Below are positions 43,316 to 48,175 of a stretch of 64,000 nucleotides of DNA, one piece after another. A program made the position numbers and the translations under genes. The stretch spans positions 128,001 to 192,000 of the forward strand of contig CAYZJA010000002.1 of assembly GCA_964479005.1 (NCBI GenBank). Reading direction: 5' to 3'. This DNA comes from an uncultured Candidatus Saccharibacteria bacterium (GTDB lineage Bacteria; Patescibacteriota; Minisyncoccia; UBA6257). Within the stretch, counting starts at the first letter, position 1, and each line of letters starts with the position of its first letter. The notes under the pieces were generated by a model. That model saw nothing but the letters and a program-made list of their open reading frames with translations. It was not told the DNA's origin and did not search any database.

Positions 43316-45733
43316 TAAAATACTTCTATTTTAATTGCAACGTTCTTGATTTATAATCAGAAAGTTGCAATAATAAGAAGGCTGAATAAAATATGAAAAT
43401 CTTTAAAGAAAACTCTCAGAAACAAAGAAGTTGGTAGGTGTATTACACACGTATTTTAACGCCACCACTTCATGGTGGCTTTTTTAATCCAAGATTTTCT
43501 GACAGAGAGTTCACAAGAGATGACTGAACTTTGAAAACGACTGTCTTTAGTTTGTCTTTTCACTAAAGATGGGAAAGTTGTATTAAGGGCAGATGGTGGA
43601 TGCCTTGACACAGTAAGGCGATGAAGGACGCGGCGTAGCTGCGATAAGCCTCGGGAAGGTGCGTAGTAACCTTTGATCCGGGGATTTCCGAATGGGGCAA
43701 CCCATTCCGATTAATATCGGAATATCCTGATTTTAATAATTAGGAGGCGTACCTGGGGAAGTGAAACATCTCAGTACCCAGAGGAAAAGAAAACAATAAA
43801 ATACATTTTACTACTGTTGTTTAGTACTGAATAGTAGCTAAATGTATTTGTGATTCCTTGAGTAGCGGCGAGTGAAAGAGGAGAAGCCTAAACCAAGCAT
43901 TCAATTTATTGAGTATTTGGGGTTATAAGGTGGATGCGCGGAAGCTTCGGCTTTCAAAATTTAAATCATAATTAATTAAATTATCTGGAAAGATAAACCA
44001 CAGAGGGTGAAAGTCCCGTAGATGAAAATTATTATTGAATTTAGTATCTTTTCTTAATTACCTCGGGGACAGATAACCTTGAGGGAAGGATCCGGAACTA
44101 TACCGGAAAGGCTAAATACTTACTGTGATCGATAGTGAACAAGTACCGTGAGGGAAAGGTGAAAAGTACCCCTGTGAGGGGAGTGAAATAGAACCTGAAA
44201 CCATTTTGCCTACAAGCAATCGAAGTCGAGCACTCAGTTTTCTGAGTGCTGGATAACGGTGTGCCTATTGAAGAATGAGCCGACGAGTTTATATCTACTG
44301 CTTAGATTAATTTCGTAAATCGAAAGTAGTCATAGGGAAACCGAGTGTTAATAGCGCGTCATTAATTCTTCTTTTTATCTCGGTTTTCGGGATAAAAAGA
44401 TTAATTAAAATGTAGTGGATATGAGACCCGAAGCCAGGCGAGCTTGCCATGACCAGGATGAACCCCATAGAAATATGGGTGGAGGTCCGAACCCGTGAGC
44501 CGTTCAATACTCTGGGATGAGTTGTGGTAAGGAGTGAAAAGCTAATCGAGCCTGGGAATAGCTGGTTCTCCCCGAAATAGCTTTAGGGCTAGCGGGCTAT
44601 TTATCCTTATGGGGGTAGAGCACTGGATGGTGTGTATAGGGCGAAAGCTCAGCTCACCAATCAAACTCCGAATACCATTAAGGTTATGATAGCCTAGTTA
44701 GACTATGGGGGCGAAGCTCCATGGTCAAAAGGCAACGAATCCAGATCGCAGTTTAAGGTCCCTAAATTTTGGTTAAGTGCTGTCAAAGGTAGTAATTTAC
44801 CATAGACAATTAGTAGGTTGGCTTAGAGGTAGCCATCCTTTAAAGAGTGTGTAACAACTCACTATTCGATCTTGATCTTCGGATCAAGGTGGTAAATTGC
44901 GCCGAAAATGTATCGGGGCTAAAACCAAATACCGAAAACGCGAATTTATCCCAACTAAGGTTGGGGTGAGTGGTAGGGGAGCGTTTCTTAAGCATTGAAG
45001 TTCATAACGTGAGTTTGGATGGAGCTTAAGGAAGTGAGAATGTCGGCATGAGTAACCACAATCCTGATGAGAATTCAGGACTCCGTAAACCTAAGGTTTC
45101 TTTGGCAATGACAATCAGCCAAAGGTTAGGCGGTCCTAAGGCAATGGCGAAAGCTGCAGCCGATGGACAGCCGGTTAATATTCCGGCCCTTCCATTTTTT
45201 TCGATGGGATGACGGAGTGTAGTAGATCGAGCATCTTAGTGGTCTGATGTCTTCGACCGAGAGTGTGTGTCAGGCAAATCCGGCGCATGGTCCCGATTTA
45301 TCGGGACAACTTTCAGGGTAGAAGCGAATTAAGGTTTTTCCTTAATAAGTTGATCGAGCGCACTTCCAAGAAAAATCTCTAAGAATAGGAAAATGGAATC
45401 CGTACCGTAAACCAACACAGGTAGGTGAGGCGAGTAGCCTCAGGAGAACGAGTGATTCCTCGTTAAGGAACTCGGCAAAAAAGCGGGCGTAACTTCGGGA
45501 TAAGCCCTTCCTACCTAAATTTTGCTTGCAAAGTTTAGGCAGGGCGCAGCGAAAGTTTCCCTGGCGACTGTTTACCAAAAACACAGGTCCCTGCGAAACC
45601 GTAAGGTGATGTATAGGGGCTGATGCCTGTCCGATGCCAGAAGGTTAAGAGCGTCGGTCATTTCGATTTATCGGAATGGCTAAGTGCTTGAAGCCCTGGT
45701 CAATGACAGCGATAACTATAATCGTTCTAAGGT

Positions 45734-46449
45734 GGGATACTGCCTTAGTAAAATTCGGCTATATGCTGGAACATCTGGTGTATCCAAGACTACTATGGTA
45801 TAATATGACCATAAAAATATGAGTTATAATATACCAAGTAACAATGTTTTTGGCGCAGACAATCAGCAGGAAAGACTCAGAATTGCTTATTGGATTTTAG
45901 GCTTTACTGATGGTGAAGGATGTTTTTCAATTGCTGTGATAGAGAACAAAACTACTAAATTTGGGAAACAGATTTTTCCTGAATTTGTAATTACACAAGG
46001 AGAAAAAAGTTTAACTGCATTAAAGAAAATTAAAAAATTCTTTGGTTGCGGAAACATTTTTATCAACAAACGATATGATAATCATAATGAGAACTTATAT
46101 CGTTATTGTGTACGTTCTTTACATGACTTAGATAAGAAAATAATTCCGTTTTTTGAAAAATATCAACTCCAAACGTATAAGCAAAATGATTTTTTAATTT
46201 TTAAAAAAGTCATAAAATTCATGATAAAGAAAGAACATTTAACTGAAAAAGGCAGAAAGAAAATTCTTGTCCTCCTCAGTAAAATGAACCATAGAAAAAA
46301 GCGATTTTGAGAATCCTCAGAGACTATATGCCGAACTCCAATATTATATTGGAGAAGATATAGTCCGAACTGCATAGCGATATGCAGAAATAAGCAGAAA
46401 TGTTTATTCGACCTTTAGATTGATTTTCTAGAGGTTAGTAACAAAATTG
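45734..46449 (+). mobile_element. Group I intron in 23S at the I-CeuI-type site (E. coli ~L1923; ...CTAAGGT^AGCGAAATTCC...)
   Basis: Exon sequence resumes exactly with AGCGTAATTCCTTGTCGGGTAA. The intron follows an exon U and ends with G. Confidence 0.75.
45819..46310 (+). CDS. Intron-encoded single-motif LAGLIDADG homing endonuclease
   Basis: LGFTDGEGCF motif. 163 aa, entirely inside 23S intron 1. Confidence 0.8.
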   Translation: MSYNIPSNNVFGADNQQERLRIAYWILGFTDGEGCFSIAVIENKTTKFGKQIFPEFVITQGEKSLTALKKIKKFFGCGNIFINKRYDNHNENLYRYCVRSLHDLDKKIIPFFEKYQLQTYKQNDFLIFKKVIKFMIKKEHLTEKGRKKILVLLSKMNHRKKRF

Positions 46450-47110
46450 AGCGTAATTCCTTGTCGGGTAATTTCCGACGTGCATGAAAGGTATAACGAC
46501 TGGGGAACTGTCTCAACGAGGAGCTCGGTGAAAATGCGTGTCCAGCGAAGACGCTGGGTACCCGCAGCAAGACGAAAAGACCCTAGAAGCTTTACTACAG
46601 CTTGGTATTGAATTTAGTTTTAATCTGCGTAGCGTAGCGGGGAGACTTTGAAGTTTCGCTTTCGGGCGAGATGGAGTCGCCAATGAAACACCCGTCTTTT
46701 TGAAGCTATGTTCTAATCCCGACGGCAAAAACGTCGTGAGACAGTGCCTGGTGGGTAGTTTTCGTGGGGCGCGATCCTCCTAAAGAGTAACGGAGGAGCC
46801 TACTAAGGTTGGCTATCTGCCAATGGAAACGGCAGAGGTAGTGTAAAGGCAAAAGCCAGCTTTATAGTGAGGGAGACATCCCAAACTATTGCGAAAGCAG
46901 AGCTTAGTGACCCGATACGTCATTGTAGAATGCGTAGAGACGTCGGATAAAAGCTACTCTAGGGATAACAGGCTGGTGGAGCCCGAAAGTTCATATCGAC
47001 GGCTCCGCTCGGCACCTCGATGTCGGCTCATCTTATCCTGGGGCTGAAGAAGGTCCCAAGGGTTTGGCTGTTCGCCAATTAAAAAGATACGCGAGCTGGG
47101 TTCAGACCGT

Positions 47111-47838
47111 CGATTTGGCGGCCTAGAAGAGTAATCTTCTATGGAAAAAGTTGACTCATATAGATGAAACCCTATTACATAAATTGTATTTTAACCTGTC
47201 GTGTGGTAGGATAATATCTAGGGAAGTTTAACTTTTTTAAACGTGAAACATCTTTCAAAGACTCAATGTGCTTATATCGCTGGGTTTTTAGATGGTGACG
47301 GAAGTCTTTATATTAGGATTAAACCTAATAAGGATTATCGGTTTAACTATCAAATAGCCCCCAATATAGTATTTTATCAATCCCAAAAAGGATGGTTATT
47401 TCTTCAGAAAATTAAAAAAATGATTAGCGCTGGTTATATGAGAAAAAGAAATGACGGGATTGCAGAATATATTATTGGTGATGTAGCAACAATGTCTTCT
47501 TTGTTGAAGCAAATATCTTCATTTCTGATATTTAAAAAGAAACAAGCACAATTGTTTCTAAGAATTCTTCAAAAGAAAACAAAGGTAAAAACAAAAGAAG
47601 ATTTTATAGCTTTAGCTATAATGATTGATAAATTGGAAAAATTAAATTATTCCAAAAAAAGGCGCATTACTTCGCAAGTTGTTATCAACACGTTAAAAAA
47701 GTTGTAACCCCTTAGAGACTTGTTCTGGTTTTTACCAGAACGGAATAGAGATTTTTAATCTCTATTAATACGTCAACCTCCTAATAAAATATTAGGATGA
47801 TGGTATAGTCCATACATAAAGTAATTTATGATTATATG
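47111..47838 (+). mobile_element. Group I intron in 23S at the I-CreI-type site (E. coli ~L2593; ...ACCGU^CGUGAGACAG...)
   Basis: Exon sequence resumes with CGTGAGACAGGTCGG. The boundary has a 2-nt ambiguity (CG duplicated). Confidence 0.75.
47243..47707 (+). CDS. Intron-encoded single-motif LAGLIDADG homing endonuclease
   Basis: IAGFLDGDGSL motif. 154 aa, inside 23S intron 2. Confidence 0.8.
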   Translation: MKHLSKTQCAYIAGFLDGDGSLYIRIKPNKDYRFNYQIAPNIVFYQSQKGWLFLQKIKKMISAGYMRKRNDGIAEYIIGDVATMSSLLKQISSFLIFKKKQAQLFLRILQKKTKVKTKEDFIALAIMIDKLEKLNYSKKRRITSQVVINTLKKL

Positions 47839-48175
47839 CGTGAGACAGGTCGGCCTCTATCTGCTGTGGGCGTTCGATACTTGAGGAGAGCTGATCGCAG
47901 TACGAGAGGACCCGATTGGACGAACCTCTGGTCTACCGGTTGTCCTGCCAAGGGCATCGCCGGGTAGCTATGTTCGGAAGGGATAAGCGCTGAAAGCATC
48001 TAAGCGCGAAGCCCACTCCAAGATTAGGTATCGTTTCCCATTTATGGGAGTGAGATTCCTGGAAGATGACCAGGTTGATAGGCTCTAGGTGGAAGTCCAG
48101 TAATGGATTAAGCCGAGGAGTACTAATTATCAAAGCAACTTTCCTATCTTTAGTGAAAAGAAATATTTTAAAATT

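Follow-up and report, generated by a model that had tools for sequence, protein, structure and literature searches.

Two predicted group I introns that carry single-motif LAGLIDADG endonuclease genes in the 23S rRNA gene of a Patescibacteria-type bacterium

Site L1931 of the 23S rRNA gene is a known intron site in Simkania, Thermotoga, and Synechococcus, and a pair of introns at L1931 and L2593, both with single-motif LAGLIDADG genes, has been published for Synechococcus lividus C1 (PMC1995217). The I-CeuI intron is located at n.1923 (PMC3315327). In the 23S genes of Candidate Phyla Radiation (CPR) bacteria, positions 1931 and 2593 are hot spots for LAGLIDADG_1 introns, versions with and without an ORF are distributed patchily among lineages, and I-ShaI, a CPR enzyme in the same class, dimerises and cleaves its own site; short non-intron insertions also occur in these genes (PMC11270868). 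The same paper, which contains no transcript data, argued that the CPR insertions grouped near the peptidyl-transferase centre have to be spliced correctly (PMC11270868).

Here, we describe an interrupted 23S rRNA gene in a 64,000-nucleotide stretch of DNA (the window) from a small-genome bacterium of the Patescibacteria/CPR type. The gene extends from 43573 to ~48140 and is followed by a 5S rRNA (48177..48284). An Rfam RF02541 search placed the start of the bacterial LSU rRNA at 43573 (1852.9 bits); the match ended at 47141 and did not cover exon 3, which is joined directly to exon 2 in relatives without intron 2. Alignment to the E. coli 23S revealed exactly two large insertions, as well as three further extra segments of 46-60 nt each in domains I-II. 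The E. coli copy used for numbering is 2903 nt long and its positions run one below the standard numbering, an offset confirmed by the H69 and PTC landmarks. In our assessment, the two insertions have a probability of about 0.9 of being mobile group I introns that each encode a LAGLIDADG homing enzyme of their own (HE1 and HE2). The features are listed in Table 1.

Table 1. Coordinates of the 23S rRNA exons, introns, ribozyme helices, and endonuclease genes in the window
Feature	Positions	Strand	Details
23S rRNA exon 1	43573..45733	+	E. coli 1..1931; RF02541 start and E. coli alignment
Intron 1, group I, 716 nt	45734..46449	+	L1931; no P2; extended P5 region; terminal G (omega-G) 46449
Intron 1 internal guide (3' strand of P1), GCCTTAG	45742..45748	+	read from sequence
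Intron 1 P3 5' strand TTCGGC	45754..45759	+	pairs with 46330..46335 GCCGAA
Intron 1 P4 5' strand TGCTGG	45764..45769	+	pairs with 45863..45868 TCAGCA, inside HE1 ORF
Intron 1 P5/P5a/P5b domain	45774..45859	+	HE1 start codon in apical loop
Intron 1 P5	45774-45777 with 45856-45859	+	TA34/CG23
Intron 1 P5a	45784-45790 with 45846-45853	+	at most 5 pair types per pair
Intron 1 P5b	45791-45794 with 45837-45840	+	
HE1, 163-aa single-motif LAGLIDADG_1	45819..46310	+	motif ILGFTDGEG, acidic residue E33; ORF intact
Intron 1 P6 and P6a 5' strand region	45869..45883	+	
Intron 1 P6	GGA 45869-45871 with TCC 46314-46316	+	
Intron 1 P6a	45876-45883 with 46304-46311	+	covaries, e.g. AT24/CG23/TA5
Intron 1 P7, P3 3' strand, P8 region	46320..46366	+	
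Intron 1 P7	46320, 46322-46329 with 46358-46366	+	bulged A46321; TA32/CG22 covariation
Intron 1 P8 hairpin	46336-46354	+	strong covariation
Intron 1 P9/P9.1/P9.2 region	46370..46435	+	
Intron 1 P9	46370-46387	+	GCGA tetraloop; at most 5 pair types per pair
Intron 1 P9.1	46390-46407	+	
Intron 1 P9.2	46411-46435	+	
23S rRNA exon 2	46450..47110	+	E. coli 1932..2593; alignment
Intron 2, group I, 728 nt	47111..47838	+	L2593; IA-like, P2 and P7.1/P7.2; terminal G (omega-G) 47838
Intron 2 guide sequence and P2 hairpin region	47118..47141	+	
Intron 2 guide GCGG	47118-47121	+	pairs with exon CCGT 47107-47110; U.G at splice site
Intron 2 P2 hairpin	47124-47141	+	GTAA loop; covaries
Intron 2 P3-P6a 5' region	47150..47228	+	
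Intron 2 P3	47150-47155 with 47772-47777	+	GC8/AT5, TA9/CG3, TA6/CG5
Intron 2 P4	47161-47165 with 47216-47220	+	CG8/AT5, GC10/AT3
Intron 2 P5 hairpin	47171-47210	+	
Intron 2 P6/P6a 5' strand	47221-47228 with 47706-47711	+	P6a TA8/CG4
HE2, 154-aa single-motif LAGLIDADG_1, I-CreI lineage	47243..47707	+	loop L6; GTG start; IAGFLDGDG, D19; ORF intact
Intron 2 P7-P9 region	47715..47830	+	
Intron 2 P7	47715, 47717-47720 with 47807-47811	+	bulged A47716; invariant
Intron 2 P7.1	47722-47741	+	
Intron 2 P7.2	47745-47765	+	
Intron 2 P8	47779-47797	+	
Intron 2 P9	47815-47830	+	GTAA loop; strong covariation
23S rRNA exon 3	47839..48140	+	E. coli 2594..~2897; alignment

Insertion 1 is flanked by ...CGTTCTAAGGT upstream and AGCGTAATTCC... 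downstream, and its boundaries are unambiguous because a one-base shift either way alters the spliced product. In the corrected numbering, it follows E. coli U1931, between CCUAAGGU and AGCG, and with a U before it and G46449 as its last base it obeys the group I splice-site rule. The flanks of insertion 2 (...GGTTCAGACCGT upstream and CGTGAGACAGG... downstream) share a CG that allows three equivalent cuts on sequence alone; only the cut chosen in the initial annotation gives a U at -1 and a G (G47838) as the last intron base, and it places the insertion after E. coli U2593. The 716-nt and 728-nt extents, the preceding U, and the terminal G given in that annotation were all exact to the base, and the alignment to E. 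coli that it had suggested fixed the insertion positions at L1931 and L2593. Its assignment of the second insertion to the I-CreI site near ~2593 was borne out. The first insertion, which it had placed near ~1923 in the I-CeuI region, instead follows U1931, a separate known site.

Judged from base pairing and its conservation, both introns have a group I core of P3-P9 with a P3/P7 pseudoknot and a P7 bulge beside a G-C pair. The helices of intron 1 were assigned by covariation over 58 homologs, in which 85% of the cells were canonical, as opposed to 36-44% when the partner column was slid, and double changes were observed at 59 of the 84 pairs. An unsupervised helix search independently returned P3, P5, P5a, P6a, P7, and P9, and the minimum-free-energy (MFE) fold reproduced P7, P8, P9, P9.1, and P9.2. 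P3 was 98-100% canonical, with four, four, three, and two types of pair along the helix. Covariation was silent on P4 and P6 because both are invariant; P4, which showed no variation in the 58 sequences, agreed with the RF00028 P4 columns in an ORF-less L1931 homolog (L066). In P1, the guide GCCTTAG pairs with the exon sequence CTAAGGT (45727..45733), the pair at the splice site being a U.G wobble. An exon T-to-A change and a guide A-to-T change occur together in two relatives (L024 and L034), and the pairing recurs in the RF00028 alignment of L066. The R and S elements are of the classic type (CAGAGACTATA and AAGATATAGTCC), and G46322-C46365 in P7 would be the guanosine-binding pair. Most of the HE1 ORF is in loop L6a, which is 7 nt in L066, and codons ~7-22 overlap the ribozyme strands P5b', P5a', P5', P4', P6, and P6a; GACAATCAGCAGGAAAGAC in this ORF is invariant at the nucleotide level.

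Intron 1 resembled the L1931 introns of PMC1995217, to which we likened it by their published description. The site after U1931 is the same, and the sizes of the intron (716 nt versus 654-700 nt) and of its product (163 aa versus 143-167 aa) are similar. The architecture is also shared: P2 is absent, P5 is elaborate, P7 is of the classical form, and the ORF extends from a loop at the periphery into helices of the core. Intron 1 differs from those introns in its Patescibacteria-type lineage and in an ORF that starts in L5b, crosses P5b'-P6a, and fills L6a. The I-CeuI intron (Ce.LSU.5) is in the same stretch of 23S domain IV, 8 nt upstream at n.1923, and both enzymes have a single LAGLIDADG motif, with I-CeuI acting as a homodimer. 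The 26-bp I-CeuI recognition sequence presumably overlaps the intron 1 junction.

For intron 2, 14 distinct homologs gave 84% canonical pairs, versus 32-46% when slid, and P2, P3, P4, P6a, and P9 showed compensatory changes; covariation was silent on P1, P6, and P7 because none of them vary. P1 is only 4 bp, with no variation in the 14 sequences, and P10 is weak. The GNRA loops of P2 are GTAA, GCAA, or GCGA in relatives. MFE folds reproduced P2, P3, P5, P6, P7.1, P7.2, P8, and P9 (P3, P5, and P6 with the ORF-deleted sequence), and P4 was recovered only in a separate MFE fold of the 5' part. The peripheral hairpins P7.1, P7.2, P9.1, and P9.2 align poorly, and their many non-canonical cells are probably an alignment effect.

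The covariance model RF00028 has a gathering threshold of 50 bits. Intron 1 had no match to it at E<=1, and intron 2 had two sub-threshold matches (22 bits at 47100-47283 and 32.1 bits at 47717-47831). In comparison, the ORF-less L1931 homolog L066, which has the same helix assignment as intron 1, scored 65.6 bits, above the threshold, and an ORF-less L2593 homolog (L042) scored 43 bits (E 6.8e-10), below it. We attribute the low scores of the window introns to the splitting of their cores by the 490-nt and 465-nt ORFs, together with the P7.1/P7.2 insert. The initial annotation had read the locus as two group I introns in a CPR-type 23S gene, a reading that stood once all core helices had been placed and covariation had been found in homologs. 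Of the checks that it had proposed, the RF00028 scan matched intron 2 below threshold and intron 1 not at all, and the P1 and P3-P9 structure was found. Taking the lack of a match as refutation, as suggested there, would wrongly reject intron 1.

Each insertion contains one single-motif LAGLIDADG ORF, with the motifs first annotated (LGFTDGEGCF and IAGFLDGDGSL) and one match to Pfam LAGLIDADG_1 (PF00961) above the gathering cut-off of 23.1 bits (HE1, 1.9e-24 and 86.9 bits; HE2, 2e-10 and 41.9 bits). Their lengths of 163 aa and 154 aa are within the ~150-180 aa of single-motif homodimeric enzymes. HE1 has 2999 homologs, and the named ones are mostly from Parcubacteria/Patescibacteria. Its best solved relatives in the PDB were single domains of I-OnuI-family enzymes (1e-40 or better; I-PanMI, 4e-44), and I-CeuI was not among the best 60 PDB matches. 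No closer kinship of HE1 with I-CeuI than with other LAGLIDADG_1 proteins was detectable, and an I-CeuI-like character of HE1 was not demonstrable. At its end, the LAGLIDADG helix has the acidic, metal-binding residue (E33). A free-standing third LAGLIDADG gene, also listed in the initial annotation, was located at 6287..7279.

By alignment, HE2 is a clear homolog of I-CreI and I-MsoI. It matched I-CreI, I-MsoI, and I-CvuI over its full length with E values of ~1e-20 to 1e-26 (I-CreI, 2.2e-26, residues 6-151), and it keeps the counterparts of I-CreI D20, Q47, and K98, with D19 aligned to D20. The sole alignment displayed was to an engineered I-CreI-derived single-chain variant, from which HE2 is divergent. 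Relatives have ATG at the position of the HE2 GTG start, and the stop codon overlaps P6a'. Intron 2 shares its site, in the helix 93/PTC loop, with the L2593 introns of green-algal chloroplasts (I-CreI, I-MsoI, and I-CvuI) and cyanobacteria (PMC3315327, PMC1995217). Like the published Synechococcus L2593 intron, it has P7.1/P7.2 and a P5 and P2 that are both short. The near-palindromic stem-loop of the L2593 target is in keeping with a homodimer; the half-sites at intron 2 are CAGACCGTC and GACAGGTCG, which differ from what we take to be the I-CreI half-sites, CAAAACGTC and GACAGTTTG.

In the proposed mechanism, the internal guide sequence would pair with the last exon bases to form P1, in which a U.G wobble marks the 5' splice site, and the bulged A of P7 beside the G-C pair would provide the guanosine pocket. 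Each intron would cut itself out of the pre-23S transcript in two transesterification steps, which would restore helix 69/71 at site 1931 and, at site 2593, the peptidyl-transferase loop/helix 93; the predicted ligated junctions are GTTCTAAGGT-AGCGTAATT and CAGACCGT-CGTGAGAC. The ~160-aa LAGLIDADG protein would act as a homodimer on a 23S allele without the intron, cutting it around the site of insertion, and repair from the intron-containing copy would spread the intron (homing). We infer self-splicing for both introns and endonuclease activity and specificity for both enzymes.

Comparison with close relatives was consistent with homing. Two relatives (L085 and L086) with ~90-97% exon identity and the same downstream PG_binding gene have intron 2 and an empty L1931 site, and in two others (L002 and L003, 98-99.6% identity) a further HE-containing intron occupies L1917. 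Intron-less alleles with the same exon sequence were found for site 1 (e.g., L085 and L086) and site 2 (L005, L011, and L018). Presence in some relatives and absence from others at 95-99.6% rRNA identity is what mobile elements should show. Other genomes retain both introns in ORF-less form, so the ribozyme is independent of the ORF. Five contigs from independent assemblies (L092-L096) have the exon 1-intron 1-exon 2 arrangement at 100% identity, which excludes an assembly artefact for intron 1, and intron 2 was reproduced in L082.

Introns of group I ancestry that had lost splicing would be retained in the mature 23S or be cut out and leave it fragmented. Everett and colleagues are said to have found in 1999 that the Simkania L1931 intron stays unspliced in mature rRNA, and the sub-threshold Rfam scores of both window introns and the short P1 of intron 2 fit such a loss. 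We nevertheless consider it improbable, as both sites, one at the H69/H71 junction and the other in the peptidyl-transferase loop, are in rRNA that is critical to function, the guide sequence covaries with the exon, and compensatory changes maintain the core helices across dozens of lineages, which argues for selection on the fold. Such CPR insertions have also been argued to require correct splicing (PMC11270868).

Somewhat less probable again is splicing only with protein help, in which the LAGLIDADG proteins would be mainly maturases that had lost endonuclease activity and homing. Some LAGLIDADG proteins, such as I-AniI, are bifunctional maturases; I-AniI appears among the HE1 matches, and translation of HE1 reads through the ribozyme strands P5b'-P6a, which physically couples the protein and the RNA fold. 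On the other hand, the catalytic acidic residues (E33 in HE1 and D19 in HE2) and the HE2 counterparts of I-CreI Q47 and K98 are intact, the polymorphism among close relatives argues for ongoing mobility, and the ORF-less versions of both introns persist. That the insertions are not introns at all but an assembly chimera, expansion segments, or intervening sequences of the RNase III type is extremely improbable. The short non-intron insertions of CPR 23S genes (PMC11270868) and the three 46-60-nt segments in this gene give that idea some footing, but complete group I cores with covariation, homologs above or near the RF00028 threshold (L066 and L042), the homing endonuclease genes inside, and the recurrence of intron 1 in five assemblies and of intron 2 in L082 all speak against it, and on structure and homology this reading is refuted.

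Mobile group I introns with homing enzymes thus remain our preferred reading. Both resemble the CPR insertion sequences of Tsurumaki et al. 2024 (PMC11270868) in phylum-level hosts, sites, LAGLIDADG_1 single-domain proteins, and group I-like flanks; helix-by-helix structures, which were worked out here for both introns, are absent from that paper. The two introns are one more instance of a well-documented, ordinary feature of CPR bacteria and nothing new in kind.

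An Rfam bacterial LSU rRNA match (1852.9 bits) began at 43573, and a 5S rRNA gene was found at 48177-48284. When the window was aligned to the E. coli 23S gene (comparison locus L001, positions 671-3573), two large insertions were apparent. With both removed, the window 23S gene was 66% identical to that of E. coli from end to end and differed by small indels only. This alignment, which the initial annotation had called for, placed both insertions exactly. The E. coli copy was 2903 nt long and its numbering ran one below the standard: the H69 U residues (standard 1911, 1915, and 1917) fell at 1910, 1914, and 1916, and the PTC loop GGGUUU began at 2580 rather than 2581. 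After correction, intron 1 followed U1931 (CCUAAGGU/AGCG) and intron 2 followed U2593 (GACCGU/CGUGAGACAG). With the introns removed, the exon 1/exon 2 junction read GTTCTAAGGT/AGCGTAATTC and the exon 2/exon 3 junction read TCAGACCGT/CGTGAGACAG.

The initial annotation had read the junction strings, the insertion lengths, the rule that each insertion follows a U and ends in G, and the ORF motifs correctly, and its assignment of the second insertion to the I-CreI region agreed with U2593. Its placement of the first insertion in the I-CeuI region near 1923 was 8 nt off and named the wrong lineage. The I-CeuI intron site is n.1923 and the I-CreI/I-MsoI site is n.2593 (PMC3315327); L1931 is a distinct site for bacterial and organellar introns that is occupied in Simkania, Thermotoga, and Synechococcus (PMC1995217).

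The Rfam LSU match stopped at 47141, 31 nt inside intron 2, yet claimed model positions 1-2925, and exon 3 (47839-48140), which makes up the final ~300 nt of the gene, was left unannotated. The largest remaining indels relative to E. coli were three extra segments in domains I-II, none of which contained an ORF. These segments probably represent expanded helices or short intervening sequences such as have been reported for CPR 23S genes, and relatives' 23S genes carried larger insertions at similar places. In the upstream region (42195-43572), we found tRNA-Ile(GAT) and tRNA-Ala(TGC), both of them typical of 16S-23S spacers, and a 227-aa mechanosensitive-channel-like ORF (42489-43172) between these tRNAs and the 23S gene. 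A 16S rRNA gene was not detected anywhere in the 64-kb window, and the rRNA genes appear to be unlinked.

Features of the 23S rRNA gene and its introns. Helix positions are counted within each intron; to convert to window coordinates, add 45733 (intron 1) or 47110 (intron 2).
Feature	Position	Remark
Intron 1	45734-46449 (+)	716 nt
Intron 2	47111-47838 (+)	728 nt
HE1	45819-46310	163 aa; one LAGLIDADG_1 match above Pfam threshold, 1.9e-24
HE2	47243-47707	154 aa; one LAGLIDADG_1 match above Pfam threshold, 2e-10
Extra 23S segment	43797-43847	51 nt; after about E. coli 228
Extra 23S segment	43895-43954	60 nt; after about E. coli 275
Extra 23S segment	44359-44404	46 nt; after about E. coli 652
Intron 1 P1	exon CTAAGGT with 9-15 GCCTTAG	U.G at splice site
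Intron 1 P3	21-26 with 597-602	
Intron 1 P4	31-36 with 130-135	
Intron 1 P5	41-44 with 123-126	
Intron 1 P5a	51-57 with 113-120	
Intron 1 P5b	58-61 with 104-107	
Intron 1 P6	136-138 with 581-583	
Intron 1 P6a	143-150 with 571-578	
Intron 1 P7	587 + 589-596 with 625-633	A588 bulged
Intron 1 P8	603-621	
Intron 1 P9	637-654	GCGA loop
Intron 1 3' end	P9.1, P9.2 after P9	terminal G = G716
Intron 2 P1	exon CCGT with 8-11	
Intron 2 P2	14-31	GTAA loop
Intron 2 P3	40-45 with 662-667	
Intron 2 P4	51-55 with 106-110	
Intron 2 P5	61-100	
Intron 2 P6/P6a	111-118 with 596-601	HE2 in L6
Intron 2 P7	605 + 607-610 with 697-701	
Intron 2 P7.1	612-631	
Intron 2 P7.2	635-655	
Intron 2 P8	669-687	
Intron 2 P9	705-720	GTAA loop
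Intron 2 3' end		terminal G = G728

The intron 1 helices were examined in 58 sequences. When column pairs that stack and covary were sought without supervision, P3, P5, P5a, P6a, P7, and P9 were recovered. Canonical pairs occupied 85% of cells, compared to 36-44% when the 3' partner was slid by 1-3 columns, and double changes were observed at 59 of the 84 pairs (for example, TA31/GC21/CG4 at P3 21-602 and CG25/GC23/AT4/TA3 at P5a 57-113). P4 and P6 showed no variation in these sequences. The HE1 ORF starts in the P5b loop, passes through P5b', P5a', P5', P4', P6, and P6a, has its bulk in L6a, and stops at P6a'; thus, ~16 of its N-terminal codons (residues about 7-22; window 45837-45883) double as ribozyme strands P5b'-P6a. 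Because HE1 reads through these strands, the stretch GACAATCAGCAGGAAAGAC inside the ORF was invariant at all three codon positions, even the third, in 55 homologs. An alternative P4-P6, in which GGA/TCC paired with an upstream GTATCC and the ORF lay simply in L6, was ruled out by the covariation and by this ORF-internal invariant stretch. Intron 1 had no P2, and it resembled the previously described L1931 introns, which lack P2, have a complex P5, and carry ORFs of this kind that reach into the core (PMC1995217).

Similar results were obtained for intron 2 with 14 distinct homologs: 84% of pairs were canonical, compared to 32-46% in slid alignments, and clear compensatory changes were present in P2, P3, P4, P6a, and P9. 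Local helices were also recovered by MFE folding of parts and of ORF-deleted versions. With its short P5, short P2, and P7.1/P7.2, intron 2 matched the described architecture of the Synechococcus L2593 intron (PMC1995217). The L2593 introns of five comparison loci (L010, L012, L025, L027, and L089) had a 5' extension (first ~30 nt) whose GAACCC is complementary to GGGTTC, the exon sequence immediately before the splice site. These introns also had a CACG, which could pair with CGTG of the 3' exon as a 4-bp P10; intron 2 of the window had neither the GAACCC extension nor this CACG.

In the window, the Rfam group I intron model RF00028 gave no match for intron 1 and matched intron 2 in two halves that were both below threshold (32.1 and 22 bits). 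The ORF-less homolog of intron 1 in locus L066 scored 65.6 bits (gathering threshold 50), and its alignment to the model contained the same P1, P3, P4, P5, P6, P8, and P9 as our intron 1 map; the ORF-less L2593 homolog in locus L042 (286 nt) scored 43 bits (E 6.8e-10). Because ORF-less homologs reached these scores, the weak results for the window introns were not read as a refutation.

HE2 produced full-length matches to I-CreI (2e-26), I-MsoI, and I-CvuI, and the counterparts of I-CreI D20, Q47, and K98 were kept in the alignment. The best matches of HE1 were to either half of two-domain I-OnuI-family enzymes (I-PanMI, 4e-44), and HE1 also matched the 170-aa single-domain protein 5gkk (1e-27). 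I-CeuI was absent among the best 60 PDB matches of HE1, and membership of HE1 in the I-CeuI lineage was ruled out by this ranking and by the site (1931, not 1923). Protein searches yielded 2999 HE1 homologs at E<=1e-5, of which the named ones were mostly from Parcubacteria/Patescibacteria, and 1818 HE2 homologs.

A scan for HE1 with one genome per GTDB species returned 80 loci, all 80 of which had a blastn match to the spliced window 23S gene. An insertion exactly at L1931 was present in 58 loci, the window included; 55 of these insertions were 676-823 nt long, and the three others, which were ORF-less, were 253-311 nt long. Most hosts were Patescibacteria, and a large group belonged to the Acidimicrobiaceae. 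Since HE1 homologs occupy L1931 in many Acidimicrobiaceae genomes, this lineage is not confined to CPR bacteria. In the Acidimicrobiaceae MAGs (loci L044-L071), the homologs were 44-51% identical to HE1 and sat in L1931 group I introns, often alongside insertions near 2593/2603 and 2136. The HE2 metagenome scan returned 3 loci only, and HE2 relatives were gathered by protein search and contig look-ups. At exactly L2593, ORF-containing or ORF-less insertions were found in 30 loci plus the window, and the 2593 site was empty in many relatives.

Close relatives of the window differed in intron content. Loci L085 and L086, which shared about 90-97% exon identity and the same downstream 450-aa PG_binding gene with the window, contained intron 2 and an uninterrupted site 1931 (...TTCTAAGGTAGCGTAATTCC...). 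Loci L002 and L003, whose exons were 98-99.6% identical to those of the window, contained the L1931 intron and an HE-containing group I intron at L1917, 14 nt upstream of L1931 (L002:2648-3394, also in L003; ACTAT/AAACAAC...TTAATG/AATCG), as well as a further ~288-nt insertion near position 2500. An assembly artefact was ruled out by independent contigs. Such presence and absence at short evolutionary distance is the pattern that homing and loss would be predicted to produce.

Taken together, we place a probability of about 0.9 on a standard mechanism in which both introns would self-splice from the pre-rRNA as group I introns and would home by means of homodimeric LAGLIDADG enzymes; splicing, cleavage, and specificity are all predicted properties. 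The leading alternative, retention of the insertions or their cleavage without ligation, is unlikely because both 23S sites are functionally important and the intron folds are evidently under selection. For one CPR enzyme of the LAGLIDADG_1 type, site cleavage and dimerisation were shown biochemically (PMC11270868).

Insertions are carried by 82% of CPR 23S genes (Tsurumaki et al. 2024, PMC11270868), and the LAGLIDADG_1 genes in these genes are concentrated at 1917, 1931, 1952, 2593, 2604, and 2657 (PMC11270868). The pair of sites occupied in the window, L1931 and L2593, is also the pair occupied in Synechococcus lividus C1 (Haugen et al. 2007, PMC1995217). Because the CPR hot spots and the Synechococcus pair have been published, the window is an ordinary example of an already known type: single-domain LAGLIDADG group I introns at 1931 and 2593, catalogued hot spots in CPR/Patescibacteria. 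Mild novelty lies only in the explicit maps of the helices, the sharing of sequence between N-terminal HE1 codons and ribozyme strands, and the conserved TGGTATAAT in the P5b loop.

The last of these elements matches the extended -10 motif perfectly and is located in the apical hairpin of P5b (window 45796-45804, intron 1 positions 63-71), with the ATG of HE1 ~15 nt downstream. Of the 55 L1931 introns with an HE, 23 had TGGTATAAT and 6 more had TGGTAAAAT; all carriers were non-Acidimicrobiaceae loci (mostly Patescibacteria). The motif was absent from the three ORF-less L1931 introns and from the Acidimicrobiaceae versions. A sigma-70 scan, which is blind to extended -10 sites that lack a -35 element, found 8 sites compared to 6.5 expected, a number not above chance. 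TGGTATAAT could act as a promoter inside the intron or could have a purely structural role. We consider it improbable that the motif is an intron-internal promoter that would yield an HE mRNA with a short leader, independently of the rRNA transcript, together with a switch between HE expression and splicing. In such a switch, HE1 translation and ribozyme folding would be mutually exclusive because the ribozyme strands P5b'-P6a coincide with the first ~22 codons of HE1.

The initial annotation had also pointed to a third LAGLIDADG gene elsewhere in the window, and such a gene was indeed present at 6287-7279 (+). This free-standing 330-aa ORF has N-terminal helix-turn-helix domains (HTH_23, 6.7e-07) and, at its C terminus, a LAGLIDADG_3 domain (3.8e-06), and it did not lie within any RNA gene or recognisable intron. 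It was located in line between a membrane-protein ORF (5178-6269) and a 494-aa ORF (7317-8801) resembling a class I aminoacyl-tRNA synthetase. Because the CPR survey found LAGLIDADG_3 proteins only inside 16S insertions (PMC11270868), the gene may be a relocated or domesticated copy.

These results carry little weight for discovery, and their practical value is in annotation. Since the LSU match truncates the 23S gene and RF00028 misses both introns, pipelines will annotate such genes wrongly, and surveys based on amplicons or rRNA will assign them wrong sizes. The helix maps could serve as starting points for better covariance models of rRNA introns that contain ORFs, as could the intron-plus and intron-minus alleles at 95-99.6% rRNA identity.
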